A stretch of 64,000 bases of DNA from a bacterium. GTDB lineage: Bacteria > SZUA-182 > DTGQ01 > JAFGSM01. The stretch lies in assembly GCA_049472335.1 (NCBI GenBank), contig JBLIRO010000021.1, positions 1,766-65,765 on the forward strand. The letters run 5' to 3'. This document shows positions 18,706 to 49,078 of the stretch, in pieces (positions within the stretch are counted from its first letter, which is position 1; each line of letters starts with the position of its first letter). The translations under genes and the position numbers were made by a program. The notes beneath the pieces are model-generated. The model was not told where the DNA came from. It did not search any database and saw nothing but the letters and a program-made list of their open reading frames with translations.

Positions 18706-18709
18706 ATCC

Positions 18710-26452: not shown

Positions 26453-27096
26453 CTTATGGCCGCAAGTCCTAAAACGCCGAATAGAAGAAAAACAAAACTT
26501 GATGGTTCAGGGACCGGCGCATAAAAATAATTAACTATCATTTCCCCATTAAACACACAATCAGAAAATTCATATTTTTTGCCCAAATCATCGTATATAA
26601 CACCAGGAAAAATATCTTTAAATACATTTGTAAGGGAAACGGAAGTATCATTTTCTTTTAAGGTAAAGAAAGACAGAATGTCGGGATTGGAATAAAATTC
26701 ACCTTGAATACCCCAGGTCCCCGCACCTGTCATTGCTTGCCCATCACCATTGAATGAACATAATCCATCTCCATCGCCAAAATCGAATTCCTGATGTATT
26801 CTTGACCCTAAGTTTATGTTTTCAACCTTTAAGATATATTGGTTTTCATAATAAAATGCCAATCCTTCAACATTATTACTATATGGAGGAGGATCGACAG
26901 ACTGATAATAAAACCAGCCATCTGAATATGTTTCCACAAGTACTTTCTCTAAGGTTCCAAGGGCTGAGTCAAACAAAAAATCCTGTGCGTCCAAAACATT
27001 ACCAATAGATAAATTTCTGCTAATATTGGCTGCTTTTGCCAAGGAGATAAAAGACGATAAACTAAAAATAATTAATAACATTAAAATCTTTCTCAT
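26419..27096 (-). CDS. PEP-CTERM-sorted secreted protein
   Basis: 225 aa. Signal peptide. The C-terminus VPEPSSFVFLLFGVLGLAAIRKKKKGRG is the PEP motif + TM helix + basic cluster of exosortase substrates. Confidence 0.75.
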   Translation of the reverse strand: MRKILMLLIIFSLSSFISLAKAANISRNLSIGNVLDAQDFLFDSALGTLEKVLVETYSDGWFYYQSVDPPPYSNNVEGLAFYYENQYILKVENINLGSRIHQEFDFGDGDGLCSFNGDGQAMTGAGTWGIQGEFYSNPDILSFFTLKENDTSVSLTNVFKDIFPGVIYDDLGKKYEFSDCVFNGEMIVNYFYAPVPEPSSFVFLLFGVLGLAAIRKKKKGRGIPV

Positions 27097-27393: not shown

Positions 27394-27554
27394 TGAACCT
27401 AAGGAAAATTGTGTATTACTTTGTTTTACATTCTCAGATTTCAAGACTTGACCCTGCTGAACCTTATAACCAAATTTAATTTCAATATGTTTTAGTCTCA
27501 TTAAACTAAATATTAAGCATAAAAAGGTTATTTGACCAAAATTAGAATTGCCAT

Positions 27555-28643: not shown

Positions 28644-30110
28644 TTATGGGACAATACAGATGGAATCCATTCCCTTAATTGGGGTCCCGTCATTCAAACT
28701 ACCGGTCAGGATTCCAGTTGTATCCTCATCCGAGAAAATCCCTTCCATATTTGCAAATTTTGCAATAAGATCTTCATGCCCATCTCCATTTACATCCTCT
28801 AAATGGGCTAAGAGAACGCCCTGTTTACCAACAGCCCCTATTTCCAAAACATCTTGCAGCTTTAGACTTTCAAGATTGATATTCGCTACATCAAAATCAG
28901 CAGCTCCAAATACGGCCACAGGTATGAAACCATAACCTGCTTTATTGATACAGTTTGGTTCGCCACCTGGTTTAATATCTATCTGGACCTCCCGGACCTT
29001 GATTTCAGGTGTCCAGAGGAAAGCATACTGGCCCAAATCCTGGGAGAAGGCTGTGCCTATAATCTGACCGCTGTCATTAATATCACTCGCTTTCAAAAGG
29101 CCCGGTTCCCCTGTTATCTCACTAAGGGCGACAGGTTCGGGTTTCCAGACTACAGCAGTCTCATCCTCCAGGATATTTTCTTCTGTCTCATATGCATTGG
29201 CTCCCACAATGATTCCTTGATTATTAATACCATATGCCATGGAAACGTTTTTCCCGGAAAGCATTCCCAATTGTGTCATTCCGGTCTCATTTGTGAAAAG
29301 AAAAGCCTTTGCGTTTCCCGCCCAACAAACACCAAATTCATCACATACCAGATTTCCACAAACACCTATAACATCTCCATTATCATTGATGCCAAAACCC
29401 TGAGACAACTCATATCCGGGAAGCACTCCGAGGTTGATCTTCTCTTCACTCTGAGTCCAAGTGAAGGCACGTGAAATAAAGCCTTCCGTTTCCGTCCATT
29501 TCCAGCTAAAGCCAACGACCTTATCGTTATAGTTAACAGCGTAAGCGACACTACCACAACTATACGGATCTTCACACTCCCACAGTATTCCCAATTCTGT
29601 TAACTCCTCTTCCATTAAAAAATATGCACGTTGACCATAATCCGTGAATATATCACCCACTATATGACCCAGGTTATTAATACCTATGGCAGTGGAACCA
29701 GAGCCGACCTTTTCACTAAGATCGCTGACCCCTTCTTCAGTCCAGAGGAAGGGTATAAAATCCTCGAACCAGCCCTCTTCCGACATGTAATAACAATAAC
29801 CAACAACGTCTCCATCCTCATTAATATCAAAGGCATGACATACATTTTTACCTTCAGGGAGTGGTAGCGTTATCATTTCACCATCCACCCATTTGAATGC
29901 TATTGCACTTATAAACATACCATCATCGGATGAGGTAGCGTAAAAGCCCACTACCTGGCCATTGTTATTGATGGCTAAAACATCGATGGTATCTGCTCCG
30001 TCAGGCCTCGGGATTTTGACAAAATCCGACGATACTGCCTTGCCCACTAAAATCATTGCAAGGATAGTGACAAATACAATCGACAACCCCTTTTTATTTA
30101 TTCTTTTCAT
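28644..30110 (-). CDS. secreted repeat protein (HAF-family-like extracellular repeats) with C-terminal FG-GAP/dockerin-like Ca-binding motif
   Basis: 488 aa. Signal peptide. Seven repeats of the form INNNGQVVGF / INEDGDVVGY / INNLGHIVGD / INDNGDVIGV / INNQGIIVGA / INDSGQIIGT. C-terminal DVNGDGHEDL. Confidence 0.65.
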   Translation of the reverse strand: MKRINKKGLSIVFVTILAMILVGKAVSSDFVKIPRPDGADTIDVLAINNNGQVVGFYATSSDDGMFISAIAFKWVDGEMITLPLPEGKNVCHAFDINEDGDVVGYCYYMSEEGWFEDFIPFLWTEEGVSDLSEKVGSGSTAIGINNLGHIVGDIFTDYGQRAYFLMEEELTELGILWECEDPYSCGSVAYAVNYNDKVVGFSWKWTETEGFISRAFTWTQSEEKINLGVLPGYELSQGFGINDNGDVIGVCGNLVCDEFGVCWAGNAKAFLFTNETGMTQLGMLSGKNVSMAYGINNQGIIVGANAYETEENILEDETAVVWKPEPVALSEITGEPGLLKASDINDSGQIIGTAFSQDLGQYAFLWTPEIKVREVQIDIKPGGEPNCINKAGYGFIPVAVFGAADFDVANINLESLKLQDVLEIGAVGKQGVLLAHLEDVNGDGHEDLIAKFANMEGIFSDEDTTGILTGSLNDGTPIKGMDSICIVP

Positions 30111-33284: not shown

Positions 33285-34355
33285 TTAAAGACCGAAGCCT
33301 GACTCCTGCTTAGAATTGCCGAATCCATAGTCTTGATAATTATATAAAAGGTAGCGTATTTTCTGAATATTTTCCTCCATATTCTTTATCATACTCAGAG
33401 TAAGCCATTTATTATGGGCGCCCCGGCTATTATCCTTCAGGAGATAAAAATAGTTTTCTTGAACCTTTTCAAACAGGGAAAATGGTTGTTCCAGGGCCGG
33501 GCCATAACCTTTCCTTTTTATGCTGTTAAACTGGGATTTGACCTCCTGTATTTGCGATTTAATTTGATTTATCCTTTCGCCAAGCTCACTTTTAAGCCTT
33601 TGGTATTGCATGACAGTCTCTTCCTTATGGCATTCAAGACAAGTTTTTTGATCTACTTCCTCAAACCCTTGATGGCACTCCTGGCAAGCTTCCTTTTCCT
33701 GGTAATGAGATGATCCCAGGCTTGATGATTCACCTGTCGCGTCTATTCCCTTAAGCATGTTATATTGATAGATGTGGCAGATATTGCATTTATTTCGAGG
33801 AGCTATTTCATCGTTATGGCAGGTAAAGCAAAAATCTTTCATCATGGAAAGATTTTTGGCCATACCGTATTCCTCATGGGCCACTCTATCGTGACAGACA
33901 ACACAGGAATAGCCCATATCCATATGCAAGCCGTGATTTACCCGAATCCTTTTGCCTAACATTGATTCTTCCATATTTTTATGGCATCCGGTACTAGAAC
34001 AGTTAACAGACTTTGATGCCTTGATATCATCCTCCTCTATTCCAAAAAAATAGATATAGGTGTTTTTAAGCCCATAGACAGTTGTCTTTATTGTCCCAAA
34101 TAGTCCTGGTTGTAAGTGGCAGGCATTGCAGCTATTTTTTGTATATTCCGGTTTATGTTGTGATTTTTGCCAGTTATCACAAGCGCTTTTAATAAGATGG
34201 CAGGATCCGCAAAAGGATGGCCGATCAAACACATAAGTATTGAGTATCCACAATAAAGAGATTAAGCAGATGCATAAAGCGCTTAAGATGATAAGGGGTC
34301 TCTTTTTTTCTTTCAAAATACGAAACATTTCTATTATCTCTTTCACCACGGCCAA
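33285..34355 (-). CDS. membrane-anchored multihaem c-type cytochrome (NapC/NirT/NrfH-like N-terminus)
   Basis: 356 aa with an N-terminal TM helix. Seven CxxCH motifs (CGSCH, CNACH, CVVCH, CFTCH, CNICH, CQECH, CLECH) plus one atypical CSSTGCH. Confidence 0.85.
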   Translation of the reverse strand: MAVVKEIIEMFRILKEKKRPLIILSALCICLISLLWILNTYVFDRPSFCGSCHLIKSACDNWQKSQHKPEYTKNSCNACHLQPGLFGTIKTTVYGLKNTYIYFFGIEEDDIKASKSVNCSSTGCHKNMEESMLGKRIRVNHGLHMDMGYSCVVCHDRVAHEEYGMAKNLSMMKDFCFTCHNDEIAPRNKCNICHIYQYNMLKGIDATGESSSLGSSHYQEKEACQECHQGFEEVDQKTCLECHKEETVMQYQRLKSELGERINQIKSQIQEVKSQFNSIKRKGYGPALEQPFSLFEKVQENYFYLLKDNSRGAHNKWLTLSMIKNMEENIQKIRYLLYNYQDYGFGNSKQESGFGL

Positions 34356-34402
34356 CAGGTTAAAATGTTATAGGCCACGATATTTCAAAAGGCCGGATCA
34401 AG

Positions 34403-37012
34403 CTATTTCCTGGTGGTTTTGGGCCTGTAATGATAGCAAATTGGCGCTGTCCAGGCCATCGCCCCATCCTTTTGCCTTACCTGGATAAGGTAATGATAAT
34501 CATCTTTTCCAGAAATATCCATATCCACAAAGGTTATATCCGCCTCTTTTCCCTTGATATTTCTTGAACTATAGATACATTTGGCGTTGCGGATAATATC
34601 CGCCTGTTCTATTTCTGCGGTGCCAATGATCCTGGCCAGCATCCTTGGGTTTGGATTGGAAGCCAAAAACTTATCCCCCATCGGATGTCCTTCAACCGTA
34701 AAATCAAGAACAATCCAGTCAGTAGCTACATAATTCCTTCTTTTCTCCAGGGCTTCAATAAGGGATTCTTCGTTGAAATCTTCAACATAAACACAAGTAA
34801 TAATAGGCATACCCTTAGGGATCGGCTTTTTTTGCAGGTAATGCCCCGGCGCCCTCTTATAAGGGCTTTTTCCCTTCATATAAAAAGAAAGAAAATATTT
34901 CCCGTTAAGATAAACGGATGTAGCCTTTTTTGCCTCCCAGAGTGAATAGTTATCAGGGCCAAACCATCTTGCGCTGTCCCGGGATGCATAATCAGCTATC
35001 CCCAGAAAATCATACTGCTGATCATCCAGGGCGTATTTGAAGGCATCTGTAACAAAACTGTCCATGCCCTTCCTGCCTCTAGTATCATGCTGCTCATGGA
35101 CCGTACCCCAGAAGAGTTTGTATTTTTTTAACCCCAGGTTCGATTCGTATCGTATCTTTGGAACTGAAATTGATTGTATATAGGATTCCTGAGTTATAAT
35201 TTTCGGTTGATTTTCAACCAGTGTAAGCTCCATATACTGAGGAGGCAATTTCTCCAGGTTCAGTGAAGCGACAAAGATACTGTCAGGATCAAGTGTTCTT
35301 GATCCATTCCGGCGATTATCTCCTGGATAGGCAATCCAGATCTCGGCCTTATCATTGACGGCACTGGCTGAAGAGGCAAAGATATTACGCCAGGTATTAT
35401 AGCCAATCTCAATCGGGGAAGACCAGATTTTACCGTCATAAAAGATGCCGTAAACCTTCCATATTTCCATTAACTTATCATGGATGTAAAAGGGTATGCT
35501 GCTGGTGTAATGATGGAAAAAAAGCCAGAGCCTTCCGCTTGAGTCTATCTGAAGCTGGGGAAGATCGGCATACATTTTCATGGCAGGTGTAAATTTGAAA
35601 TAAAAATCCTCAGTAGGTTTATAGAATTTACCCTCGTAATAACAGATAAGACCAATTTTTCTTGAATTATACCTGCCCCGCCTTCCTTCCATCGGGGTTT
35701 TATCATAATTTATCTGGGTTTCAACAGACTCAAATTTACCTATTTCAATAAATCTTTGTTCTTCATCCTCTCCAAAACCCCAGTTATCCCCTGACATATC
35801 CCAGGCAATCCACACTCTTCCTGACTTATCCGCAGCAAGGCTGGCATGAGCTACATAATTCCTAGTAGAAAATATCTCTATTTCCGGTCCAAAGGCACCG
35901 ATCTCAGGATTGAATTGTCTCAGGACTATAGCGTGCTTTCTATCGCGATATGTATCCCAGGCTAGATAAATATTTCCTTTATAGTCTGTTGTTATGACAG
36001 GTTGCCAGTCGTTTCCTTGATGGTCTGTGACCCTGATAATGGATGACCATTTGCCTCTATCCCAGTATTTCATGAATATATCCGCATTTTCAGACCCAAA
36101 GCCCTGCCAGGCTACCCAAAGCCGGCTATTTTCATCTACTATGAGGCGCTGGTTTGTATCCGGACCCGGATGATTGCTGATCCGAAAGATTGAGGACCAG
36201 CGGCCGTTCTTGTAATATCTTGCATAAATATCCCAGTTTTCCTTAACCATGGCTGGCCAGCAGACCCAAAGGCCTCCATCGGGGTCTCCGGCCAAAGATG
36301 GCTGGAGATAGGATCCTGTATCCGAAATCTCTATCTCTTTTCCCCATTCCTGGCCATTGTATTTCCTTAAAACCAATCGCTCCCTGCCTTTTTTGAAACT
36401 TATATATGCTGTCCAGATATTTCCCATACTATCTATAGCGATGGAAGGATAATTGTTCATCGTCCCTTTTGAGCCAAATATAAAGGAACGCGGCAGTAAT
36501 TGAATCTCAATGTTTTGATTAATTCTTGTAATCGGCCTCCCAAGCTTTAAATCTTCCAGATTGAAGGAAAACGTACCCCCTGCGGTAGCAACAGAAATGC
36601 TTGTTGTGCGGGGTGCATTAAGCTCCAGGATAATTCCTTTAGCTACCCACTCCTCAAGATATTCTCTTGGTGAGAACCCTTCAAGCCTGTCCACTATTGC
36701 ACGGCCATGAAGCCTTTCAATTGAGCACTTCCATCTGTTTTCTTCAGGGAAAAGATTATCCTGCTCTGTGAAGTTAATAGCCTTTATATTCTCAATCCTG
36801 CCCTCAGAAATTGACACCTCGCCATCCCATGTGATAGGCTTTGGCCCCCTTATTCCAAAGATTATCTGCACTGTCCAAAGGAGTACCTTTTTATGCTTTT
36901 CTATTTGAGAATCTAAGATGCTAACATTATAGAAAAGAGAGAATATTAGGATAAATGTACAAAGAATAATCTGAGAGATGATTTTATTTCTGTGAAATAA
37001 ATTTTTCATCAA
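34403..37012 (-). CDS. large secreted protein: beta-propeller-like W-rich repeats + C-terminal PHP/CehA-McbA-like metallohydrolase-type region
   Basis: 869 aa. Signal/anchor peptide. Repeated units (GRWSSIFRISN, GKWSSIIRVTD, LWVAWQ, IYLAWD, VWIAWD). The C-terminus ends in the family-typical YHYLIQVRQKDGAMAWTAPI. The function assignment is weak. Confidence 0.55.
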   Translation of the reverse strand: MMKNLFHRNKIISQIILCTFILIFSLFYNVSILDSQIEKHKKVLLWTVQIIFGIRGPKPITWDGEVSISEGRIENIKAINFTEQDNLFPEENRWKCSIERLHGRAIVDRLEGFSPREYLEEWVAKGIILELNAPRTTSISVATAGGTFSFNLEDLKLGRPITRINQNIEIQLLPRSFIFGSKGTMNNYPSIAIDSMGNIWTAYISFKKGRERLVLRKYNGQEWGKEIEISDTGSYLQPSLAGDPDGGLWVCWPAMVKENWDIYARYYKNGRWSSIFRISNHPGPDTNQRLIVDENSRLWVAWQGFGSENADIFMKYWDRGKWSSIIRVTDHQGNDWQPVITTDYKGNIYLAWDTYRDRKHAIVLRQFNPEIGAFGPEIEIFSTRNYVAHASLAADKSGRVWIAWDMSGDNWGFGEDEEQRFIEIGKFESVETQINYDKTPMEGRRGRYNSRKIGLICYYEGKFYKPTEDFYFKFTPAMKMYADLPQLQIDSSGRLWLFFHHYTSSIPFYIHDKLMEIWKVYGIFYDGKIWSSPIEIGYNTWRNIFASSASAVNDKAEIWIAYPGDNRRNGSRTLDPDSIFVASLNLEKLPPQYMELTLVENQPKIITQESYIQSISVPKIRYESNLGLKKYKLFWGTVHEQHDTRGRKGMDSFVTDAFKYALDDQQYDFLGIADYASRDSARWFGPDNYSLWEAKKATSVYLNGKYFLSFYMKGKSPYKRAPGHYLQKKPIPKGMPIITCVYVEDFNEESLIEALEKRRNYVATDWIVLDFTVEGHPMGDKFLASNPNPRMLARIIGTAEIEQADIIRNAKCIYSSRNIKGKEADITFVDMDISGKDDYHYLIQVRQKDGAMAWTAPICYHYRPKTTRK

Positions 37013-37166
37013 TGGATTTCTCTTCTTACATAAGTCAATGACATGATCCTTGAGAACATATAAGAATTTTTTTTTGTATCTTTAATATGTTCTGTTATAA
37101 ATCAAATTTTGTCAAATGTAAACCCAGAGAACTATCATCCGGCAATTCTTGTGCAATAATCTGTAG

Positions 37167-37192
37167 CTAGCGAAGTTCCGCTTCAAACCGAC
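37167..37192 (+). repeat. 26-nt dispersed direct repeat, copy 1 (CTAGCGAAGTTCCGCTTCAAACCGAC)
   Basis: 24/26 identical to 48855-48880, same orientation. Confidence 0.7.
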
Positions 37193-37319
37193 TAAAAAGT
37201 GCATTTTGTTTGGAATCTTTAACCTTCAAATTGAATATCAAGAAAATTAAAATTTTTTAATTTTAATTTAATCTTCTTTTAATTATTCTTATGGTAAAAT
37301 AAAAATAAGGAGGTGAACT

Positions 37320-37931
37320 ATGATATCAAATAAGAAATTGAGAAATGTTTTATTGATTCTTATTATATCCCTGGCCCTTGGGCTTATCTTTTCACCAATG
37401 GCCTTATGTCAATATTGGACGGCATTACCGCCATATAATTTCCTCTGGCCATTATGGTCACCAGCCTTGTCTCCGGTTAATCCTGTTACCGGGCTACCAA
37501 CTCCCATAGTCAGCGACCTTTATCCGAGCACCGTACTTCCCGCCCAGCCGGGTTTGGTATGGAATCCGGTTTTGAGTTATCCATATTTTCTTTACAATTC
37601 ACCTGTAGGGATGCAGTATTATGATGTCATTTACGGAATAAATACCTGGCCGCCCAGTTATGTATGGAATCCTGTAACAGGTGCACCCGTTCCAGTCGGT
37701 TTACCGGCGGGGTATGGTTTTCTGCCTGCTACAGACCCTCTCTGGATACAGCAAAATCTGCCGGTTGCAAATCTGGCCTATCTGGCAGAATACCCAAATT
37801 TGGCCCTGGCCGCTTACAATATAGTCCTTCCTCCAAATCTGACAGGTTTAAATCCATGGCTGGCTTCTCTAATATATCCGACACCAGCCTTTTCCTCACT
37901 TCTCACAGTGGCTGATATTTTAGGATACTGA
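37320..37931 (+). CDS. small secreted Pro/Trp/Tyr-rich protein, 'WPLWSP' family paralog 1
   Basis: 203 aa. RBS AAGGAGGTG. Signal peptide ending ALC-QYW. 48 of the first 73 mature residues are identical to the 45407 product in an ungapped hand alignment. Confidence 0.7.
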   Translation: MISNKKLRNVLLILIISLALGLIFSPMALCQYWTALPPYNFLWPLWSPALSPVNPVTGLPTPIVSDLYPSTVLPAQPGLVWNPVLSYPYFLYNSPVGMQYYDVIYGINTWPPSYVWNPVTGAPVPVGLPAGYGFLPATDPLWIQQNLPVANLAYLAEYPNLALAAYNIVLPPNLTGLNPWLASLIYPTPAFSSLLTVADILGY

Positions 37932-37954
37932 TTTTTGGGTATTTCAGGCTAAAA

Positions 37955-37990
37955 GGGTGCTGATGGGCTTAAATCCTTCAGCCCCCTTTT
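37955..37990 (+). terminator. rho-independent terminator candidate after 37931
   Basis: GGGTGCTGA (37955-37963) pairs with TCAGCCCCC (37978-37986) with one mismatch, followed by TTTT. Confidence 0.5.
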
Positions 37991-38245
37991 GTTATATTTA
38001 CCCTTGTAAATCCACTAATGCCAGATCCCATCAGTAATCAATCCAGATACTTCACTTCCTTATAATCGATTGGAACACCAATTAATCAAATGGATATAGT
38101 ATAAAACACTATACAATGTGTCGTATATCACACTATTTTCAAATATAAATTTTGGTATTAAAATTGTATTATATAGCAATAGAAAAATGCCCGCCTATAT
38201 TGAGAATTAGCATAATTATAAGTTTAGATATAAGGAGAACAGAAA

Positions 38246-40372
38246 ATGAAACAAAAAGTGAAATGCAATGTAATTGAAACAACTATTATTATCATGATCA
38301 CATGTATACTCTTATGTTTGTCCCGTCCAATCAAGGCCCAATATAGCCCTTTCTCTTATCTTTCACCTGCCCTGGGGAATCCGGGCCTGTTTCAAAGCCC
38401 TTCATTTTTGACCGGTTTCCCTATTACAGGTTATGCGCCCGGTTTTTCCGGGGCAAACATGGGCTCTTATTACGGATACAATCCCTACAATCCATACGGC
38501 AATTTATATGGAGCACCCGGTTCCTATTATCCATATTATCCTTCTTATACCTCCTTCCCCGCGCCCCCTCCCCTCCCTGTAGGTAATATAGAGACCGTCA
38601 GGGCCATGGAGGCAAAGGGGATATACATCTATTATATATTTGAGGAGGCATATTCCGATGGCGTAACGATACCAAGTCCCGAAATAACACTACAGATTGC
38701 CGATGTCAGCGATCCTGACGACCCGGATATAATCAAAAGCATCTCACTTGATTATCCCGTATCCGATATCTTTCTCCACGGGGACTATCTGTACTGGATT
38801 TCAGACACTGGCCTGGAAGAACTTGGTTATAATCTGAATGATGATGAATACATATTGGGGGTTTTTGACATATCTGATCCAGATTCCCCCACAGAGATGG
38901 ACACCCTGAAGCTGACATTTTCCTCTCAGGGCGCTCCCGTATTCTCCTTTAATGAGAACCGTCTTTATATCCTGTATCAAGAGCAGGAAGAGGACTGGGA
39001 TGATGAAATCCATAATCTGATTACCATCGATATCTCCGATCCGGGAGATCTTACAAAGCTATCTACCGGGGAGATAGAATTGGACGGCTCAATAATACAC
39101 GACATGACTGTCAGGGACAACCTTGCAATCCTCTCTAAGGGCTATATCATGGATATATCCGATCCAAAACATCCATACCTTGTCTCCGAAGTGGAAGATA
39201 ACGGAAGTCACCTCGGACGTCATGCGGTATACGGGAACTATCTGCTCCTCACCGCAGAGGAAGAAGGTTTGTGGATAGTCGATATCGAAGACCCATCCCA
39301 GCCCGAGTTTATAACGAAAATAGAGTTGGCATGGCCCAAGGATATTATTATCAAGGATCAGCTTGCATATATATCCGATTACTGCAAGGGGCTCAATGTG
39401 GTGGACCTTACTGATCCGGAAGATCCCGAACTGATCCACGGATACAGGCTCCCTTCACACAAGATGTACCGCAGCACATCTAACAGCACTGAAGGCTGGC
39501 TAAACGATATGGATATGGGAGAAGGGCTTGCCCTTACCTTATCCTATTCAAATATACAGATATGGGATATATCAGAGAAAGACGATGTTCAGATGGTTGA
39601 GAGGATCGGCTCCTCTCATGAACAAGAGGATCTTACAAAATCGATAATCCCTGGGAAACTGGTTTTGCTTCTTTCACATGATGCAATAGATTTGCTGTCC
39701 ATCGGCCAGGACGGAGGTATTGCCACTTTCGGTATTGATTCACTTGATGAATTAAACGAGAAATACAATATATCCAAAATCACAAAAGAAACATCATCAT
39801 GGGAAATCCCTGCAATAATGTCTGACTATGATAATTATTCAAAAAGGACCTTTTCCATAGAATTCCCAGGATCCGTAAATATGTATGATATTTGGGATGA
39901 CTATATGGACAATCCTTATTGTCTTATTGCAGAGTTTCTCTATACACCCGATCCTTATTCGAATGGAATTGTTGTAGGTTATGGGGGCGGCTATTATGGC
40001 TTACCCTTTCCGGGAGGATACGGCCTGGGAGGGATCTATGGCCCAGGGGGGTATGGCATGGGATTTGGGGCTTTCAATCCCTATGGTTATACAGGTATCC
40101 CATATCAAGGCACCAATCTTCTGCTAGGCCCCTTTGGTTTATCCGGAACAGGATATTCACCATACGGCCTGACTAATCCTTTTCAGTATGGCACAGGTAT
40201 GCCCGGCATTATTAGTTCAATCCCCTGGAATCCTATATCATCATTATTTCCGGGTGGGAACTGGCAATTTCCCAACCAGTCATATTGGCCCGGTTCCCTA
40301 TTTTCAGGCACTAATATTTATAATCCAATATACCCGGGAGGAAATTATTCCATGTACTATCCGTTTATATAA
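38246..40372 (+). CDS. secreted LVIVD-repeat beta-propeller protein flanked by N- and C-terminal Tyr/Gly/Pro-rich low-complexity regions
   Basis: 708 aa. Signal peptide ending IKA-QYSPF. LVIVD-type repeats (ILGVFDISDPDSP, LITIDISDPGD, GYIMDISDPKHP, LWIVDIEDPSQP, LNVVDLTDPEDP). The C-terminal ~135 aa are GY/PY-rich. Confidence 0.8.
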   Translation: MKQKVKCNVIETTIIIMITCILLCLSRPIKAQYSPFSYLSPALGNPGLFQSPSFLTGFPITGYAPGFSGANMGSYYGYNPYNPYGNLYGAPGSYYPYYPSYTSFPAPPPLPVGNIETVRAMEAKGIYIYYIFEEAYSDGVTIPSPEITLQIADVSDPDDPDIIKSISLDYPVSDIFLHGDYLYWISDTGLEELGYNLNDDEYILGVFDISDPDSPTEMDTLKLTFSSQGAPVFSFNENRLYILYQEQEEDWDDEIHNLITIDISDPGDLTKLSTGEIELDGSIIHDMTVRDNLAILSKGYIMDISDPKHPYLVSEVEDNGSHLGRHAVYGNYLLLTAEEEGLWIVDIEDPSQPEFITKIELAWPKDIIIKDQLAYISDYCKGLNVVDLTDPEDPELIHGYRLPSHKMYRSTSNSTEGWLNDMDMGEGLALTLSYSNIQIWDISEKDDVQMVERIGSSHEQEDLTKSIIPGKLVLLLSHDAIDLLSIGQDGGIATFGIDSLDELNEKYNISKITKETSSWEIPAIMSDYDNYSKRTFSIEFPGSVNMYDIWDDYMDNPYCLIAEFLYTPDPYSNGIVVGYGGGYYGLPFPGGYGLGGIYGPGGYGMGFGAFNPYGYTGIPYQGTNLLLGPFGLSGTGYSPYGLTNPFQYGTGMPGIISSIPWNPISSLFPGGNWQFPNQSYWPGSLFSGTNIYNPIYPGGNYSMYYPFI

Positions 40373-40433
40373 ATACTTTAATCCGGGTATAAATCCCTCC
40401 GGCTTTAATAGTCCGGAATTTTAGTCAAAATGA

Positions 40434-40458
40434 TTCAGGTGATTGAAAATATTTTAAC
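40434..40458 (+). promoter_or_regulatory. recurrent motif, looser copy (TTCAGGTGATTGAAAATATTTTAAC)
   Basis: About 150 nt upstream of the ATG at 40605. Shares TCAGGT..TTGAAA.TATT with the other copies. Confidence 0.2.
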
Positions 40459-40604
40459 AAAAACTCTATTACTATATATTGCTAAATCAACTAGGACTTA
40501 AAATAACAAAAGTCAGAAAGGGATTACATTGAAGGGAATAAAAAATGCAGCAGTAAAAATAATGTTTTCCGGCGTAAACACTCAGAATTGGAAGGAATAT
40601 TAAA

Positions 40605-42689
40605 ATGATACAATCATGGATCTTCTATCTACAAAGGAGCATGAGAATCCGCAACAGGGATTTCCATGTGAATAACAATAGATTAATAGCTTTTTTTATT
40701 ATCATCAACATAACGATATTAATCAATCCTATAAATGTTAATGCTCAATGGATGCCATTTACCGGGTTAAATTTTCCAGGAGCACTTACCCAATGGCCAT
40801 CTTACACCGGGTCTTTATTCAGCCCTGACTATTCTTTATTCAATTTCAATCCCGCATACGGGAATTCTTTTTACTCGCCATTTTATCCATTGTCCGGATC
40901 GTTTTCAGGAGGAATATATGGAGGGTTATATGGAGGATCATATGGGGGATTGTATGGGAGGAATTATAATCTCCTTTCTCCGGGTTTAATTCCCTCTTTT
41001 TTGTACACCAATCCTTATATAAGCCCTTCTTCTTCCAGTCCAACAAACTGGACGGCAAACGTGTTGCCCGGCAACAATAATTGGTGGCAGGGACCACCTT
41101 TATATTTCCCCCAGAATTCGTTATTTAATCCTATTTTACCGAGTATTATACCGGTTTCTCAGCCGAACACTTACTGTGATCCGGCTTCTGCACCAGGCAG
41201 GATGAAAGGGAACTGGAGCAGCAAGATGATGAAAGACGAAGATGGCAATGCATTATCAGGGGAACTGAGCGTTAGAAGCGGAGGTGACAGCGATACTATC
41301 AATATGCTGGATTCTTACCTTATACTGGGCGAAGGCTCCCTTAATGAATTTAAATATACCCGCACCAACGGCAAGGCACCCATATCATTTCAAGGGACCT
41401 TCTATTCAGGATATACAGCGAATTTTACCGGCACTGCCAACAATAAACTTTGCTGCCGGAATACCTACTGTGCTTTTGCCGGTGTTTTTGAGGTGGAAGG
41501 TAATTATGTGATCAAAGACAAACTTGGAGAAATCGCAGATAAAGGCACCTTTAAACTCAAAGGGCCTGTTAGCAGCTCCTCTACAAGTCATACACCGGTT
41601 GACGCCATCAAGGCACTGGGGAAGCCCGTTGAAGAAGGGAGAGAGATCCTTTCCCTGACTACCGGAGCAGACGGCCGCATCTATGGAGGAACGGATATCG
41701 GGTGTCTAAATGTAGGGCACATGTTCATCTATGATCCTGCCACAGAAGAGACCATCGATCTGGGCAACCCGGGTTATGAATGCAATGCCATGACCACAGG
41801 AAAGGATGGCTTGATCTATCTTGGCGGAGGCACAAGGTCTTCGGGTGACCATGATTGTAAGTCAATAGGTTATGCCAACTTTGCCATCTATGACCCGGAC
41901 AGGCCCTGGAATCCCGGCCAGGGATCAAATGCCAATCCCCGGGACCTGGGACAGGCCGTGAATTTCAGCGGAGAAGTTGAGGGCTATCCCATAGTGGTAC
42001 ACGATCTGGCCACTGCCCCCAATGGAAAGATATATGGCTGTACAGGTTACAGAGACGGACAATCGGGGGAATACTATGCCAACCTCTTTGTATATGATCC
42101 TCAAACGGATACCATAGAGAATCTGGGTCAGCCAATCTCGAACCAGAGCAGTATCACCAGGCTGGCAATAGCCCCGGACGGCATTATATATGGAGTAATT
42201 CTCGGCCCTCGCACTGGATACAGGCCCCCTCCGGGTAAGCTCTTTTCCTATGATCCGGCATCCGCATCCTTCACCATGATCAATACACCATCATCTATCG
42301 AGGGAGCCGGTGACCTTACCGTAGGAGCGGACGGTCTGTTATATCTGGCAGGGAATGAAAACAATACCACTATATTTACCTATGATCAGGTCTCAAAATC
42401 CTTTGATATTAAAGGCGGTCTTGGCGGAGGCGGCAGCGTCCTGAGGATGATCACTGCCGTGGATGGGATCATTTATATCGGTTGCGCGGTAAATGGTTAT
42501 TTTGTTCATTATGATCCTGAAAAGGCTTGGGATGACAAGCCATATAGTGATGCTAATGACAAACCAGGAGTAAATCCCAGGGTCTTTCATTGGACGGAAA
42601 AGGTAAATGCCTTGACTGAAGGTTTGGACGGGACTATCTATTTTGGCAATTTAAGCGGGCAGCTATTTTATTTCGAAGGAGAAGAATAA
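40605..42689 (+). CDS. secreted protein: N-terminal low-complexity region + middle domain + 7-bladed beta-propeller (DGxIYxG repeats)
   Basis: 694 aa. Signal peptide ending VNA-QWMPF. Low-complexity region to about residue 190. Seven repeats: ADGRIYGGT, KDGLIYLGG, PNGKIYGCT, PDGIIYGVI, ADGLLYLAG, VDGIIYIGC, LDGTIYFGN. Confidence 0.75.
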   Translation: MIQSWIFYLQRSMRIRNRDFHVNNNRLIAFFIIINITILINPINVNAQWMPFTGLNFPGALTQWPSYTGSLFSPDYSLFNFNPAYGNSFYSPFYPLSGSFSGGIYGGLYGGSYGGLYGRNYNLLSPGLIPSFLYTNPYISPSSSSPTNWTANVLPGNNNWWQGPPLYFPQNSLFNPILPSIIPVSQPNTYCDPASAPGRMKGNWSSKMMKDEDGNALSGELSVRSGGDSDTINMLDSYLILGEGSLNEFKYTRTNGKAPISFQGTFYSGYTANFTGTANNKLCCRNTYCAFAGVFEVEGNYVIKDKLGEIADKGTFKLKGPVSSSSTSHTPVDAIKALGKPVEEGREILSLTTGADGRIYGGTDIGCLNVGHMFIYDPATEETIDLGNPGYECNAMTTGKDGLIYLGGGTRSSGDHDCKSIGYANFAIYDPDRPWNPGQGSNANPRDLGQAVNFSGEVEGYPIVVHDLATAPNGKIYGCTGYRDGQSGEYYANLFVYDPQTDTIENLGQPISNQSSITRLAIAPDGIIYGVILGPRTGYRPPPGKLFSYDPASASFTMINTPSSIEGAGDLTVGADGLLYLAGNENNTTIFTYDQVSKSFDIKGGLGGGGSVLRMITAVDGIIYIGCAVNGYFVHYDPEKAWDDKPYSDANDKPGVNPRVFHWTEKVNALTEGLDGTIYFGNLSGQLFYFEGEE

Positions 42690-43327
42690 CCTTCTTCCTG
42701 GCCGAAGCTGCTCCAAGGTTAGGAATACGAAAATATCTGTGTTGACAATGTTGAAGCGTAACCAGGACAGTAATAATTTCGTCTTTTTTCGTGATTGTTA
42801 CAGATACGAGATAAAAAGACACGGAGGCAAGTTTTTCATATCTAATAAAAATTTCAAAGATATTTATTTAATGAAGCAGAGATTTTATAATTAATTATTT
42901 TAAAAGAAGATAAGACAAAAAGAATTGTAGAGTATTAAAAGGCAATTAGTTGCAAAAACAACTTTATAAAGGAGATTGTTTTATCGATATAATTAAAGAA
43001 TTATTATAAAAATTTAATCTGTTTATTCCATTCATTGTTAACAGGTGATGAAAAGAGAAAATAATCCTGCTTTCCATGTGCCTTGTTCCTTTTCCTATTA
43101 AATTAAATCGAGAATATTGAAAATACCATAATCATGATTTGGTATTTAAATATCTCCCTGCTACTTTTCGATTCTCTCTATCCCGAATACGTTAGTATTA
43201 AAAAAATTCATATACACCTGTTTTTATGGATTTCGATTTTTATAGAGTGCTTAAAGGTTTTGCATCTTGGTAAAATAGTAATACCCTGGTTTTTTAAAAT
43301 ACACATTACTTTTTCGATGCTCATGAG

Positions 43328-43350
43328 GTCAGGTCTTGAAATATTGATAC
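43328..43350 (+). promoter_or_regulatory. recurrent motif GTCAG-N3-TTGAAATAYTGAYA, copy 3
   Basis: GTCAGGTCTTGAAATATTGATAC, about 125 nt upstream of the ATG at 43476. Confidence 0.3.
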
Positions 43351-43475
43351 TGAGTTTAAAGAGAATTGAGAATGAATTTTGCTGTTATAATTTTGGGCTT
43401 GAACCTTTTCATGCTTAATATATATTTTAATGAGGCAAAAACATATTAAAATTAAATTATGAGGTGAGGTGAATC

Positions 43476-45260
43476 ATGCCGGGTAAAAATACTTATAAAA
43501 CGTCTTTTGCTTTTATGTTTTGTTTTTTTGCTTTTTCTCTCTTTTTTCTTATACCTACACTTCAATGCCAATGGTATTCATATCCACCACCTATGAACAA
43601 TCTAAATTTTAACGGGTTTCCAGGGAATTCTCCATGGGCTTTTAGTAACTATCCTCCGGCTTATGGCTCCTCCCCTGTCTTACGAAATTTCTCTCCCATC
43701 CCTGGTTATTCCGGATTTTCTATAAATTCCGATCCTTACGGAAATCCATGGATGCCGTATTTTCCTCCGACTTCAGGATCAAAAAATTTGGCCACAGCCA
43801 GGTTTTCCTTTGTCCATTTAGCTGTAGATGGGGACTATATCTATGCGCTATTCACAGAAGCAAGAGGCCGGAACAGGAGTGCACTTGTCATTTTTGAGGC
43901 TTCCGGCTCGGATGATTATGAATATCTCTCCCATATCACTCTTTATGAGCCTGGCTATTTAATAGATGCGAATCCAGCGCCCATGGAAATCATTATCAAA
44001 GATGATCTTGCTGTAATCGGCGGTGATGACCAGGGCATGATTTACCTGGTGGATATCTCCGAAAAGGATGACCCGGAGCTTATCAACAAGCTCATCCTGG
44101 GCAACAGGACGGCGGATGATAGTGCTGCTGACAGGGTGACCGGTCTGGCAATTGAAGATGATGTGCTTTTTGTGAGTGTCCCTTTTTTTGTGGAAAATGA
44201 CAGTAGAATCTACGCCGTGGATATTTCCAATCCGGAGGATACGGATGAGGATGATGACCTGCTTGATTCCTTCACCGTAGATGACTATGACGTCCACGGC
44301 ATGGTATCTTCTCAGGATTACCTCTATGTCGTCGGCAGAGACCGTGGTTACCCTGACGGAGAGAACGAAGGCGGGGCCACAATTCTCATTATGGATGTCT
44401 CAGACCCGGAGCATCTATCTTTGGAGGAAATCTTCGATGACCTGGATGATTCGTCGTTGGGAGAACCGGATGATTTAAGTGTAGAGATTGCAGGTGACTA
44501 TCTTTTTGTAACATGCGGTGATTTTGAAGGCTCCTCTTCAGAGTCTAAATTAAGGATAATTGACATAAGTGACCCCGAAGACCCGGATCTGATATCTTCT
44601 TCCAAAAAAATGACCGGCACGCAAATATTCGGAAACAGATACATATCCGTTAAGGATAATTATGCCTATGTATTAGCATCCGATACCAGCGACAAGGAAT
44701 CCGGAATCTATGTCTATGACATATCCGATCCGGAGGACCCTGATTTAGTTGAAACTAGAAATATTAGTGACGGCAGCGGATATGACCTCCATCTCGTCGA
44801 TGACAGGCTTTTTGTCCACATTATCAATCAAGGGATTATAAAACTGATTGACATATCGGATCCAAGGGATCTGTCAATAGAAGGGACCGTGGACCTTGCC
44901 GGGATACTGGAAGAGGCAGAGGAATTCGATGATTGGGGATACACCGGGTATGTAGTTCCTCCTTATCTTTATGGGGGTTATCCGCCATATGGATATTCTT
45001 ATACTCCACCTCCTCTTTATACACCATCCCTACCCATTGGTTATAACACACCATACGGAACATCCAGGGTCGGTTTGGGAAATGTCCCTAACTACTACGG
45101 ATATGCACAACCATTTTATGGCGGCAATCTCAACTACGCTTCAAGATTTGGCTTTAACTATGGGCAAATACCCTATGGTGGATATCCTAATTATGGCCCT
45201 GTGCCTGGGTATAGTTATGGTTTATCAGCACCTTATTTTGGCAGTTGGCGGCAATTCTGA
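43476..45260 (+). CDS. secreted LVIVD-repeat beta-propeller protein with N- and C-terminal low-complexity regions (paralog-like to 38246)
   Basis: 594 aa. Signal peptide ending LQC-QWYSY. Repeats MIYLVDISEKDDP, RIYAVDISNPED, ILIMDVSDPEH, LRIIDISDPEDP, IYVYDISDPEDP and IKLIDISDPRD. The C-terminal ~108 aa are PY/GY-rich. Confidence 0.8.
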   Translation: MPGKNTYKTSFAFMFCFFAFSLFFLIPTLQCQWYSYPPPMNNLNFNGFPGNSPWAFSNYPPAYGSSPVLRNFSPIPGYSGFSINSDPYGNPWMPYFPPTSGSKNLATARFSFVHLAVDGDYIYALFTEARGRNRSALVIFEASGSDDYEYLSHITLYEPGYLIDANPAPMEIIIKDDLAVIGGDDQGMIYLVDISEKDDPELINKLILGNRTADDSAADRVTGLAIEDDVLFVSVPFFVENDSRIYAVDISNPEDTDEDDDLLDSFTVDDYDVHGMVSSQDYLYVVGRDRGYPDGENEGGATILIMDVSDPEHLSLEEIFDDLDDSSLGEPDDLSVEIAGDYLFVTCGDFEGSSSESKLRIIDISDPEDPDLISSSKKMTGTQIFGNRYISVKDNYAYVLASDTSDKESGIYVYDISDPEDPDLVETRNISDGSGYDLHLVDDRLFVHIINQGIIKLIDISDPRDLSIEGTVDLAGILEEAEEFDDWGYTGYVVPPYLYGGYPPYGYSYTPPPLYTPSLPIGYNTPYGTSRVGLGNVPNYYGYAQPFYGGNLNYASRFGFNYGQIPYGGYPNYGPVPGYSYGLSAPYFGSWRQF

Positions 45261-45406
45261 ATACAACCGATCAGACAATTTTTATGACAAGCTTTAATGG
45301 AAAAAAACTTTATAAATAGGATTAAAGAATAAAAAAATATTGTAACATCTTAGTTGATTAAAAAGTAAATGTTTTTAATTTATCATTAAAAATAAAGGAG
45401 GGAATC

Positions 45407-45922
45407 ATGTCAAAAAAAAGAATAATCTTTATCTGTCTCATTATCTCCATTATCTCATTGATTTTGGCTCCCTCAGCTCAATCCCAAAATTGGGCAGCCA
45501 TACCTCCTTATAATATCTTGTGGCCATTGTGGTCACCCATCTTATCACCTGTTAATACAACTACACAGCTCCCAACACCGATTGTTTCAAACTTGAATCG
45601 TTTTACCCTGCTTCCATACCAACCAGCTATCGCTTGGGATCCATATATGCCTTATCCCTGGTTTCTTTACAATAGTCCCTTTGGCTTAGTATATTATGAT
45701 GTATTACAGGATTTTATTTCTATGTGGCCTCCACTTCATCTAATCAATCCGTTTACGTTTGACCCCCTCCCCATTACACTTCCATCTAATTATTCTGCTT
45801 TTCCGCCGGTCTCTAGTGTTTTTCTTTCAGAATATGTCCCAATTGCAAACGAAGCATATACTGATCAATACTTCCCTAATGCATTCTTGTTAACTGCTAT
45901 TCAACTCGTTGCCCCATTTTAG
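45407..45922 (+). CDS. small secreted Pro/Trp/Tyr-rich protein, 'WPLWSP' family paralog 2
   Basis: 171 aa. RBS AAGGAGGG. Signal peptide ending AQS-QNW. The conserved core is IPPYNILWPLWSPILSPVN..LPTPIVS...FLYNSPFG.VYYDV. Confidence 0.7.
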   Translation: MSKKRIIFICLIISIISLILAPSAQSQNWAAIPPYNILWPLWSPILSPVNTTTQLPTPIVSNLNRFTLLPYQPAIAWDPYMPYPWFLYNSPFGLVYYDVLQDFISMWPPLHLINPFTFDPLPITLPSNYSAFPPVSSVFLSEYVPIANEAYTDQYFPNAFLLTAIQLVAPF

Positions 45923-45964: not shown

Positions 45965-46201
45965 TTATGGGGTATTGAGCATAGCTCCGTAGGCGTAGAT
46001 TTCTCCCCACCCGTATTCCTGGTCCCAACCGGTTGTCCCAGATCCACCGCGGTACTTTCAAGGATATTTCGCACCTGAAGCAGCGTTAACACAGTCGAGC
46101 TTTTACTTAGAACAAGGGCAGCTACACCCGAGGCCAGTGCACAGGTCTTGAATTGTTAGGTCATAGAAGACAAGGTCAACATCCGGGGAGAAGATATTCA
46201 T
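45965..46201 (-). pseudogene. decayed C-terminal fragment of an S8 peptidase paralogous to 24588-26330
   Basis: The minus strand reads TCALASGVAALVLSKSSTVLTLLQVRNILESTAVDLGQP and then, after a 1-nt frameshift, GWDQEYGWGEIYAYGAMLNTP-stop. The intact gene has ACALAAGVTALVISKSTAVLTPLQVTNILQTTATDLGVVGWDQEYGWGEVYAYGALLNTP-stop. The catalytic Ser box is missing. Confidence 0.65.
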
Positions 46202-46792
46202 AAGCTCATTAAAAAAGTCTTTTTCAATTTTTTTTTGAGACAAGGGAATCCTTTGCCCTTATGAGACATGAAAGGAAAAGATAAAGGAGAGAACATAAAA
46301 TCCAATCCCAAAATAAAGGAGAAGTATTTTTGAAATCAAACAGGAGGAAAGGGGGGAATTTTAATTTAAGTTGAAAAAAATATTTTTTATGGTTATAATT
46401 TAAATAATATAGATTGGTTTTCTAATATCCTAATTCATCTGAAAATTTCTATCGTGCATTTTCATTTTTTTCTTTGTATTTAGGATTCATAATTATTTTA
46501 ATTCAATTTTTACTTCATTGTTTTTTTAATTACTCTTCGAATTGTTTCAAAATTTTCATGAAACTAAGATTTAATCTAATTTAAAAAAGAAGTTCATAAT
46601 CAGGTTAGTAAAGTTTAAAATAGCAAAATTGTCAGGTTTTAACTAAAGCAACTTTATTATTTATGTTTTTAGATATCTAAAATGTATATCATTAATATCT
46701 TATAGCAATCCGTATTAATTTTATTTTAGATAAAATATATATTATTCAGCTTTATATAATGCCAAATTGATCAAAAGAAAGGATTTATTAAC

Positions 46793-48187
46793 ATGCAAAA
46801 AAGAAATATATTAACAAATTATATAAAGTCAACCTTTTTAATTGTTATTAGTTTATTCTTAGGATGTGCTGGTACCTTAAGAAAAGCGCCACTAGAAAAA
46901 CACGACTCGCATTTTATTCTTAGGGAGTATCCAAAACATGGAATTGTATATTTTTATAAAGAGAAAAAAGGTTTAGGTTCTATATATATAAAAGCTAATG
47001 GAAAAAGGATAGGCGCATTGAATAATGGAACATATTTTGTTTATTTAGCAGAACCCGGTCAAAATATATTTTCTGTAGAAGATAATTTGAGAGAATCCCC
47101 TTCACAAACAATAAATATTGAACCTAATAGAGACTATTATTTTCGAGGCAGTATTAAAAGAGGTTTTTGGGACGCTGTACCCTATTTAGAAAGAGTAGGC
47201 GAGATTCTAGGTAGAGGTACCATTTTGGGGTTGACTTATGCAACACTTGAAAAACCACCTGCTTCCACAAATACAATAGAAGCTTATGAAGAATTCTTAA
47301 AGCAATATCCAGCCAGAAATTATATGCAAAAAAAAGAAATAAAATGGTTTATAAGGGGGAAAAAAAATGATAACTCACCAGATTATTTATTTATATTAGA
47401 TAATGGATACTCGTTTAATGGGGAATTGGCAGATGATTTTATTTATCTTATAGATTCCTCAGGGGAGCGAAAAAAGATAAGTTCTAATGATATTATCTCA
47501 ATATATGCAATTGGCTTGGAAACTAAAAGGTTAGAATTGAAAGAAAACAAAATAAAGGGAACTATCATTGGAGAGATTAAAATAAGAACAAAAAAAGGCG
47601 GTTTAATAATCGATCCAAAAAATTTAGCTTTTTACCATTCCCATATAACAAGATCAGCTAACGAAATATCAAGACTAGAAATTATAGAGAATCAAAAAAT
47701 TATGTTTTGGGAGAGCAAAAAGACTTCCGATTCGATAAAAGGCACAATAATACCAGAATATTGGATAAGCAAAGTATTTACATTAAATAATCCACGTTAT
47801 TCACCAATTATTGATGATCCCTTTGAGCCAATAGAATTTTCATTTGACTTTCAAAAACATTCGGATATAAGTGATAATACTTTAATCATATTCCGGATGA
47901 TTATTTTAAAGGAAGGCGGTTTTGGAGGATTTGAAACGTTGGCTTTTGATTATACACCATTATCTATTTCAATAGGAGAAACAAAAAAAATAGACTTAAA
48001 TATAACCCTTGCTTATAAATCATTTACTAAATCGCTTAAGGGAAAGGGATATTTAGAACTGTTTGTTGTTCCCAACGCTGGGACATCTTATAGATTCCTA
48101 ACAGATAAGATTAAGATTTTTAGAACGATTAGTAACGTTCTGAGATTACCCATTGAAATCAAAAATAATAAAAATATAAAATCCTGA
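46793..48187 (+). CDS. putative lipoprotein with DUF2846-like N-terminal domain, function unknown
   Basis: 464 aa. Lipobox-like LFLGC. Visibly AT-rich, Lys/Ile/Asn-rich coding sequence. No catalytic motif. Confidence 0.55.
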   Translation: MQKRNILTNYIKSTFLIVISLFLGCAGTLRKAPLEKHDSHFILREYPKHGIVYFYKEKKGLGSIYIKANGKRIGALNNGTYFVYLAEPGQNIFSVEDNLRESPSQTINIEPNRDYYFRGSIKRGFWDAVPYLERVGEILGRGTILGLTYATLEKPPASTNTIEAYEEFLKQYPARNYMQKKEIKWFIRGKKNDNSPDYLFILDNGYSFNGELADDFIYLIDSSGERKKISSNDIISIYAIGLETKRLELKENKIKGTIIGEIKIRTKKGGLIIDPKNLAFYHSHITRSANEISRLEIIENQKIMFWESKKTSDSIKGTIIPEYWISKVFTLNNPRYSPIIDDPFEPIEFSFDFQKHSDISDNTLIIFRMIILKEGGFGGFETLAFDYTPLSISIGETKKIDLNITLAYKSFTKSLKGKGYLELFVVPNAGTSYRFLTDKIKIFRTISNVLRLPIEIKNNKNIKS

Positions 48188-48341
48188 AATTAAAAAAAGC
48201 TATCAATTTCGCAGAGGTTAAGGATCTTGTCCTTCTCTTTCAAGTATCAAAGGAGAAGAGGTTTTGGGGGAATAGGATAGATGTTCGGTTTATTTAAAGC
48301 CTTATCAGGCCAAAAATATAATATTAAAAAGGTAAAATAAA

Positions 48342-48947
48342 ATGTTTTATTTCATAATGGGTGTGTTTATAATTGCTATTATTGCAACTTTTATTATATT
48401 GATCCGCCTGATGATTAGTAGTGAAGACCAAAAAGAGCCGATTGAGCCCAAAAACGAACAACAACAAGAAGATAATATTGAAGAAGATGTCTTTCAAGCA
48501 GGGGTAGCTAATAAATGCCCTTGCTGTGATTCAGAAAATCTTGAATTAAACCCAAAATGCGACTGTGGTTACGATTTTACAACAGAAAAAGTTCAAGAAC
48601 CATATATAAAGTTTGATGCTCTCATTAATATTGATAATTTAAAAAATGTAAAATTAAGAGAAGATTATAATAATATAGATTCTTCTAAATGTCTTATAAT
48701 TAAATGTAAAAAATGTGGAAATAAAAATACTTATTGTATCACATCTAAAGAAGATATATGTAAGATTCCTCTCACTGCCGGTGTTAGAATTATTAAAAGA
48801 CTAATGCCAGGCACTCTACTTCCACTTATAGTAACTCTCTTTATAAGCACTATACTAGCGAAGCTCCGCCTCAAACCGACAAGGTTAAAGACTGCTTTTC
48901 TGGCGGAGCTTCTCGATGCTGGCTTCTTGATGCTAGATACTGGATAA
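48342..48947 (+). CDS. membrane protein with two zinc-ribbon-like CxxC pairs, function unknown
   Basis: 201 aa with an N-terminal TM helix. CPCCDSENLELNPKCDC and CKKCGNKNTYC. The 3' end overlaps a long hairpin and a dispersed repeat, so the C-terminus is uncertain. Confidence 0.45.
   Translation: MFYFIMGVFIIAIIATFIILIRLMISSEDQKEPIEPKNEQQQEDNIEEDVFQAGVANKCPCCDSENLELNPKCDCGYDFTTEKVQEPYIKFDALINIDNLKNVKLREDYNNIDSSKCLIIKCKKCGNKNTYCITSKEDICKIPLTAGVRIIKRLMPGTLLPLIVTLFISTILAKLRLKPTRLKTAFLAELLDAGFLMLDTG
48855..48880 (+). repeat. 26-nt dispersed direct repeat, copy 2 (CTAGCGAAGCTCCGCCTCAAACCGAC)
   Basis: 24/26 identical to 37167-37192. Confidence 0.7.
48860..48912 (+). other. 11-bp perfect inverted repeat (GAAGCTCCGCC ... 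GGCGGAGCTTC) with a 31-nt loop
   Basis: Read directly. The 5' arm lies inside repeat copy 2. Confidence 0.6.
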
Positions 48948-49078
48948 ATACAAATAAAAAATATTCCTTGATTTGCTAGAATCCAGAGACTAGAAACCAG
49001 CATCGGTTCCATTTCACCTTAAATTAATCGCTAAAAACTTGATCATTTGTTAAGTTTTTAGTCTATAAAGGACAACTA

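Follow-up and report, generated by a model that had tools for sequence, protein, structure and literature searches.

Do the five neighbouring genes for exported proteins at 37320-45922 of a 64,000-nt stretch of bacterial DNA (contig JBLIRO010000021.1; the whole analysed stretch is hereafter called the window) encode one defined surface assembly, or was their arrangement put together from smaller pieces? The five open reading frames (ORFs), co-directional on the plus strand, lie exactly where the preliminary description of this DNA had placed them. The outer two, S1 (37320-37931, 203 aa) and S2 (45407-45922, 171 aa, a short subtype), encode exported proteins of a family that we designate S, the S1 product being nearly charge-free and Pro/Trp-rich. 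L1 (38246-40372, 708 aa) encodes an exported LVIVD beta-propeller with an acidic core and uncharged Tyr/Gly/Pro tails at both ends, and L2 (43476-45260, 594 aa) an exported LVIVD beta-propeller of another subfamily, likewise with low-complexity tails at both ends. The exported product of the central gene P (40605-42689, 694 aa) has low-complexity sequence near its N-terminus, then a beta-rich middle domain (~aa 190-330) and finally a propeller of seven blades. The mirror order S-L-P-L-S had been taken to reflect the stoichiometry of a multi-component assembly. Our favoured explanation, to which we assign a probability of about 0.6, is that the cluster is a plastic island, built from smaller units and not a five-part system, whose genes encode Sec-exported proteins that probably belong to the cell surface or a matrix.

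Gene order in relatives of the cluster

The mirror order is present in the window and is kept in none of the loci L004, L084 and L086. L004, from a sister metagenome-assembled genome (MAG), has the order S2'-S1'-L1'-P' with 87-91% identity across L1 and P, and its synteny with the window stops 72 nt past P, inside the spacer between P and L2. L084 (~75% identity) reads regulator-L1'-P'-LVIVD; S genes are missing from both flanks, and its third gene, an LVIVD gene, does not resemble L2 any more closely than L1 does. L086, a contig of 3.3 kb, carries L2' (80% identity) followed by S2', to which the window S2 is matched by phmmer at an E-value of 7.6e-105. The mirror symmetry is incidental and is found in this genome only.

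Beyond these loci the association of S with LVIVD genes disappears. No S gene lies within 10 kb of the L1 orthologs in L082 and L083 (52-56% identity) or of the L2-like genes in L087, L088 and L089 (40-48% identity), and altogether six LVIVD loci other than those in the window, L004 and L086 lack an S gene within this distance. The P ortholog in L085 (51% identity) has no adjacent L or S gene, the one S gene there being 8 kb off on the other strand. Different contigs carry the S1 and L1 orthologs in MF1_201910_bin_226, and likewise the S1 ortholog and an L2-like gene in MF1_202303_bin_233. The converse survey covered 78 S loci from 11 MAGs, each with flanks of up to 10 kb, altogether ~120 S genes and 4116 ORFs, and the LVIVD profiles were iterated over 221 LVIVD proteins. 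Among these ORFs, LVIVD genes were found in the window and L004, plus a weak and partial match in L050, which lies at the edge of the locus, 6-9 kb from the S genes and on the other strand; 75 of the 78 S loci contained no LVIVD gene. Leaving the L050 match aside, co-occurrence of S and LVIVD is restricted to the window and its close relatives L004 and L086, and the proposed stoichiometric S-L-P-L-S assembly fails this check of neighbourhood conservation.

What does recur is smaller. L1 and P are syntenic in three contigs (window, L004 and L084), P has a second LVIVD gene behind it in the window and L084, and L1-like and L2-like genes occur together in L088. L1-P forms a conserved module of propeller genes, as a rule with another LVIVD gene after it, and the S genes that flank it have no recurrent association with it. 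Of the surface-assembly idea there remain the export-like N-termini of all five proteins, the conserved L1-P module and one S-LVIVD fusion protein, while the unit of two of each is lost. Directly upstream of L1' in L084 we also observed a gene for a GerE-type response regulator (1363-2076), 75% identical to the window gene at 12013-12723. This window counterpart lies 25 kb upstream of L1, so that either an insertion of ~25 kb occurred in the window lineage or the two regulators are paralogs.

The history of S1 could be read from the nucleotide comparison with L004. Its upstream region and signal-peptide part (37134-37415, plus strand) show 86-87% nucleotide identity to L004 S2' and only 48-52% to S1', whereas the mature part, from the conserved PPYN motif onward, shows 92-95% identity to S1'. 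The window S1 is a hybrid: its 5' half comes from an S2'-type gene, and the two tandem S genes that it combines remain distinct in L004. An S2'-like 5' part joined to an S1'-like mature part is what unequal crossing-over of tandem paralogs leaves behind. The position of S in the cluster is recent and variable, and the S family itself is mobile, recombining and multi-copy.

The S family and its genomic settings

The paralogy of S1 and S2, which had been noticed before, is borne out by 50% identity over 150 residues (E 3e-44). A protein search with S1 returned 236 relatives, a profile run against 1.84 billion cluster representatives yielded only 102 S representatives (50% identity), and a scan of one genome per species gave 155 tblastn-confirmed S copies, the best 80 of which come from 11 MAGs. 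At least 11-15 S loci are present in each of three MAGs. The alignment contains a strongly conserved domain of ~150 residues, whose invariant positions, nearly all of them Trp, Pro, Leu or Tyr, do not appear to include a catalytic set. Lys and Arg are absent from the 173 mature residues of S1 and average less than one in the S domain. An AlphaFold model built from the family alignment (predicted local distance difference test score, pLDDT, 83; predicted template modelling score 0.73) is a small beta domain with C-terminal helices. Foldseek gave no match to it, the best E-values being 2.1 in the PDB and 0.64 among the viral models of BFVD, and no sequence match was found in the Pfam, NCBIfam, PHROG or PADLOC models or in PDB sequences. 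S is an undescribed, lineage-restricted family. We also considered whether S derives, as a degenerate copy, from the N-terminal tail of L1, P or L2, and rejected this because the S profile matched these proteins weakly and in the signal-peptide region only (E 0.008-5).

S genes occur singly, in tandem arrays (nine genes in L080 and seven in L063) and as the N-terminal domain of larger proteins. Five such fusion proteins are encoded at 9932-20559 of L066, with Pro/Thr-rich linkers and repeated beta-rich units of ~110 residues. P0383, of 765 residues, joins a signal peptide and an S domain with an insertion to a strong LVIVD propeller (Pfam 3e-51). Other fusion partners include beta-helix/PKD, FG-GAP/BACON and PT-linker repeat architectures, and an internal S domain was found in a protein with an HExxH motif. 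Since S is fused to several unrelated architectures, it behaves as a general module and not as an LVIVD-specific partner. Hence the S domain is promiscuous and mostly N-terminal, and its fusion to LVIVD was found once.

Same-strand genes downstream of S encode, among others, sulfatase-like proteins, a PQQ-like lipoprotein and leucyl-tRNA synthetase; most commonly the product is another small exported protein of low complexity. The 90 nt that follow an S gene form more stable folds than those behind other genes (mean -22.3 vs -17.6 kcal/mol, permutation p ~2e-4, a comparison in which arrayed S paralogs are not independent data points), which fits individually terminated genes. Two neighbours of S genes were observed repeatedly. 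A small exported family with the pattern '..LFPAPTLP..VGV..LIPT..' trails S in at least seven places (L016, L021, L039, L042, L050 and L057), and a Tyr-rich small exported protein of ~150 residues precedes the S1 orthologs in other MAGs (L001, 9381-9809; L002, 9468-9902). Both families are undescribed.

These settings bear directly on the competing explanations of the cluster. A defined assembly of two S proteins, two LVIVD proteins and one central propeller, with a mirror order that reflects its stoichiometry, is largely refuted already by the lack of conservation, and we regard it as highly improbable. That the genes are co-directional and adjacent, that their products have export signals and tail chemistry in common, and that the L-P-L order is repeated in L084 would all suit such an assembly, but the mirror order exists in no other contig (S precedes S in L004 and is missing from L084), S1 has a terminator of its own, S genes are overwhelmingly found without LVIVD, and S1 is a recent recombinant. 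The five-gene 'machine' is not worth pursuing as a system because it dissolves once relatives are compared. A doubtful explanation, to be taken more seriously than the fixed assembly, is that S serves in this sublineage as a dedicated adaptor or anchor of LVIVD proteins, so that S1+L1 and L2+S2 would be independent pairs, each equivalent to a split S-LVIVD fusion, with P as a third client. S does adjoin both LVIVD genes, the S1-L1 adjacency being kept in L004 and that of L2-S2 in L086, and the N-to-C order of P0383 is the same as the gene order S1-L1; L004 and L086 are however close relatives (80-90% identity) and therefore not independent evidence. The dedicated adaptor has to contend with L1 and L2 orthologs at 40-75% identity that lack a nearby S gene, with the fusion of the S domain to at least four other unrelated architectures, with the opposite gene order of the two S/L pairs, and with the S1 orthologs of other MAGs, which adjoin the Tyr-rich small gene instead. 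That both LVIVD genes adjoin an S gene, and that one fusion protein exists, leaves it some probability. For the opposite extreme, in which genes for exported proteins merely accumulate in a rearrangement-prone region with no functional relation, one can point to the breaks of synteny on both sides, the gene remnants, the chimeric gene and the patchy GC content. This too we find quite unlikely, as the synteny of L1-P extends over three contigs, at ~75% identity in the most divergent, LVIVD genes cluster again with the P middle domain in the distant L087, and L1-like and L2-like genes co-occur in L088.

Several observations also weigh against the plastic island that we favour. Each S-LVIVD adjacency is kept in one close relative, such a double adjacency is unlikely to arise by pure chance even given the copy number of S, and P0383 does exist as an S-LVIVD fusion. 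In addition, the five genes may have stood together for somewhat longer than one would conclude from L004 alone. In the window, the cluster is bounded on the right by a frameshifted remnant of a subtilase paralog (45968-46143, minus strand; C-terminal 59 residues), detected by tblastn with the product of the subtilase gene at 24588-26330 and by blastn at 79%. A fragment of a subtilase paralog, also frameshifted and different from that in the window, lies directly after P' in L004 (6590-6756). From remnants after S2 in the window and after P' in L004, it follows that L004 may have lost L2-S2 by deletion. As for the origin of the symmetry, duplication of an S-L pair followed by inversion was considered and rejected, given the two pairs in opposite order, the occurrence of L1 and L2 subfamilies in distant MAGs without S, and the Tyr-rich small gene, in place of L1, beside S1 orthologs elsewhere.

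Propellers, charge-free tails and a possible surface role

In the plastic-island explanation, the propellers form the conserved part of the cluster. Genes 2 and 4 had been described as LVIVD propellers with low-complexity regions at both ends, and we agree. L1 (50.4 bits) and L2 (25.1 bits) exceed the Pfam gathering cut-off of 20.2 for LVIVD (PF08309); the E-values are 1.4e-13 for LVIVD and 7e-8 for Beta_propel in L1, and 1.1e-5 and 2e-6 in L2. Precomputed Pfam marks on the orthologs of both are consistent with this assignment. The choice-of-anchor B family (TIGR04312) does not fit, as L1 scores 26.4 and L2 21.7 bits vs a curated cut-off of 100. The two are distant paralogs (26% identity, E 2e-15), and L1 orthologs, at 47-73% identity, are confined to the same lineage.

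P is, as had been stated, a different propeller with an N-terminal low-complexity region, and has seven regularly spaced DGxIY blade motifs. Only a single marginal stretch matches Kelch_6 (PF13964; 27 bits vs a cut-off of 25.3), and a single-sequence AlphaFold model of low confidence (pLDDT 59) was matched equally well by G-beta, PorZ, streptogramin lyase and Kelch propellers. A metagenome scan with P gave one distant locus. PDB sequence searches with L1, P and the S profile gave nothing meaningful.

LVIVD-repeat proteins have been described as cell-surface beta-propellers (PF08309; Adindla et al. 2004, PMC2447325), and one preprint proposes a role in attachment (10.1101/2022.05.06.490989). 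L1 and L2 have in common with typical members of the family the signal peptides, a size of ~600-700 aa and a score above its gathering cut-off. They differ from the remote homologs in Bacteroidota, KSB1, WOR-3 and Zixibacteria, which usually end in a type IX secretion system (T9SS) sorting domain (PF18962) or in FlgD-Ig, in that uncharged Tyr/Gly/Pro tails stand at both of their ends. No Pfam match to PF18962 was found in L1, L2 or P.

The N-termini of all five proteins look like signal peptides followed by Gln and an aromatic residue, in line with the export that had been predicted for them. The tails beyond are nearly free of charge. Lys, Arg, Asp and Glu together account for 0 of 81 residues in the N-tail and 1 of 143 in the C-tail of L1, for 2 of 143 in the N-tail of P, and for 2 of 69 and 3 of 106 in the tails of L2; Tyr makes up 10-22%, Gly 9-24% and Pro 13-22% of the tails in L1, L2 and P. 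The propeller cores of L1 and L2 are strongly acidic (91 Asp/Glu vs 24-26 Lys/Arg). Tail sequences of L1, L2 and P are moderately conserved among orthologs and are therefore not purely compositional. Similar uncharged aromatic/Pro regions directly follow the signal peptides of the subtilase at 24588-26330 (plus strand), an S8 protease with a fervidolysin-type prodomain, and of a metallophosphoesterase-like protein at 14383-15996 (plus strand). In L087 (DAOURK010000047, CSMAG_150), nine co-directional exported proteins with Tyr/Gly/Ser/Pro tails are encoded at 14-16780; among them are three LVIVD proteins of the L2-like type and one protein of 339 aa in which there is nothing but a tail and the P middle domain. 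Uncharged Tyr/Gly/Pro tails are thus a general trait of exported proteins in this genome and lineage and are not specific to the five genes.

A literature search for bacterial Tyr/Gly-rich secreted tails gave nothing relevant. Resilin and the [G/S]Y[G/S] regions of the FUS type are Tyr/Gly-rich low-complexity domains that self-associate. The tails of L1, L2 and P resemble them in a Tyr/Gly/Pro-rich, almost uncharged composition; the likeness is compositional only, and the tails sit on bacterial exported proteins. The positional parallel with the T9SS domains of remote LVIVD homologs suggests that the tails may serve in retention. On the basis of composition and architecture, the charge-free aromatic tails would hold the acidic ectodomains in the envelope or extracellular matrix by self-association, the propellers would be binding or enzymatic ectodomains that act together, and S would be transcribed separately, probably be abundant, and serve as a structural or anchoring module.

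Whether the S domain and the charge-free tails together constitute an undescribed, lineage-wide system of cell-surface display or matrix formation is a speculative question, to which we lean towards a negative answer. If they did, stand-alone S, highly expressed from many paralogs, would polymerise or coat the envelope, and enzymes and propellers would be retained through an N-terminal S domain or through self-associating aromatic tails. The system would then play the role that the T9SS C-terminal domain, PEP-CTERM and SLH play elsewhere, and the cluster in the window would be an island of its clients. Those three are modular sorting or anchoring domains of surface proteins and, like the S domain and the tails, are joined to many unrelated extracellular domains within one lineage. 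S differs from them in being N-terminal, ~150 residues long, mostly stand-alone and without a match to any known family or fold. None of the five proteins matches the PEP-CTERM signal (TIGR02595) in NCBIfam, and the same model detects one genuine PEP-CTERM protein elsewhere in the window, a 225-aa exported protein encoded at 26419-27096 (minus strand) that ends in this domain (18.2 bits vs a cut-off of 16). By this protein, the organism probably has an exosortase system.

A second parallel is offered by the chaplins of Streptomyces and the hydrophobins of fungi, multi-copy families of small structural proteins that are secreted and comprise shorter and longer forms. Like S, they have many paralogs per genome, are small, carry a signal peptide, are hydrophobic or aromatic and nearly charge-free, and include some longer multi-domain members. 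The S host is however a diderm, the likeness lies in general traits and not in sequence or fold, and assembly of S into a layer is purely hypothetical.

Three things nevertheless seem worth recording: a narrowly distributed S domain whose confident predicted structure has no match among solved or viral folds, the charge-free aromatic tails that are habitual on exported proteins of the lineage, and the small conserved L1-P module. Together they are a hint that the envelope or matrix biology of this lineage, which is known from metagenomes only, is unusual, although they open no long-standing question.

Expression signals and neighbouring genes

Strong ribosome-binding sites had been claimed for the whole cluster. 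Strong Shine-Dalgarno sequences do precede S1, L1, L2 and S2, whereas that of P is weaker or ambiguous. The hairpin reported after S1 holds up as a likely intrinsic terminator (37950-37992, plus strand), with a fold energy of -29.4 kcal/mol (z -3.9; none of 200 shuffles was as stable) and a GC-rich stem-loop followed by a U tract (tail UUUUGUUAUAUUU). A simple terminator scan overlooked it because its loop exceeds 8 nt.

As described, genes 3 and 4 are preceded by AT-rich spacers (232 and 786 nt, GC 0.29-0.30), the longer one, between P and L2 (42690-43475; GC 0.29), being also the one in which blastn places the end of synteny with L004. The recurrent motif ascribed to them is weakly supported, amounting to only 72-83% matches across 22-39 nt of AT-rich DNA. 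As promoter and terminator counts were not above those of shuffled controls either, we rejected a shared regulatory motif. A 75-nt AT-rich element (43385-43458) ends 17 nt before the start codon of L2 and has an inverted copy at 27473-27547 with 84% identity; this second copy is intergenic, with no obviously associated gene. A search of the cluster spacers for S pseudogene remnants found none. PHROG and PADLOC models gave no matches to phage or defence signatures, and a phage or defence origin of the cluster was rejected.

Judged by its gene content, the host is an uncultivated diderm bacterium, and the window has the look of diderm chromosomal context, with genes for LptC and an adjoining ABC ATPase, a TonB receptor and RecA. 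The gene next to S1, transcribed divergently from it, encodes an 869-aa protein that has propeller repeats and, at one end, a metallohydrolase region of the CehA/McbA type; this gene in turn adjoins that of a NapC/NirT-type multihaem cytochrome (both within 33285-37012, minus strand). Two further large exported proteins are a 1170-aa protein with thrombospondin type 3 repeats (20842-24354, plus strand) and a HAF-repeat protein (28644-30110, minus strand). At 16825-20527 (plus strand), a YcaO cyclodehydratase gene with an ABC exporter directly after it may form a locus for a ribosomally synthesised and post-translationally modified peptide or of thioamide type. Beyond the right edge of the cluster, the stretch 46000-49000 has a low GC content (0.29-0.32 vs ~0.40-0.45 nearby) and may have been acquired separately; it encodes a DUF2846 protein and an unassigned 201-aa Cys-rich membrane protein.

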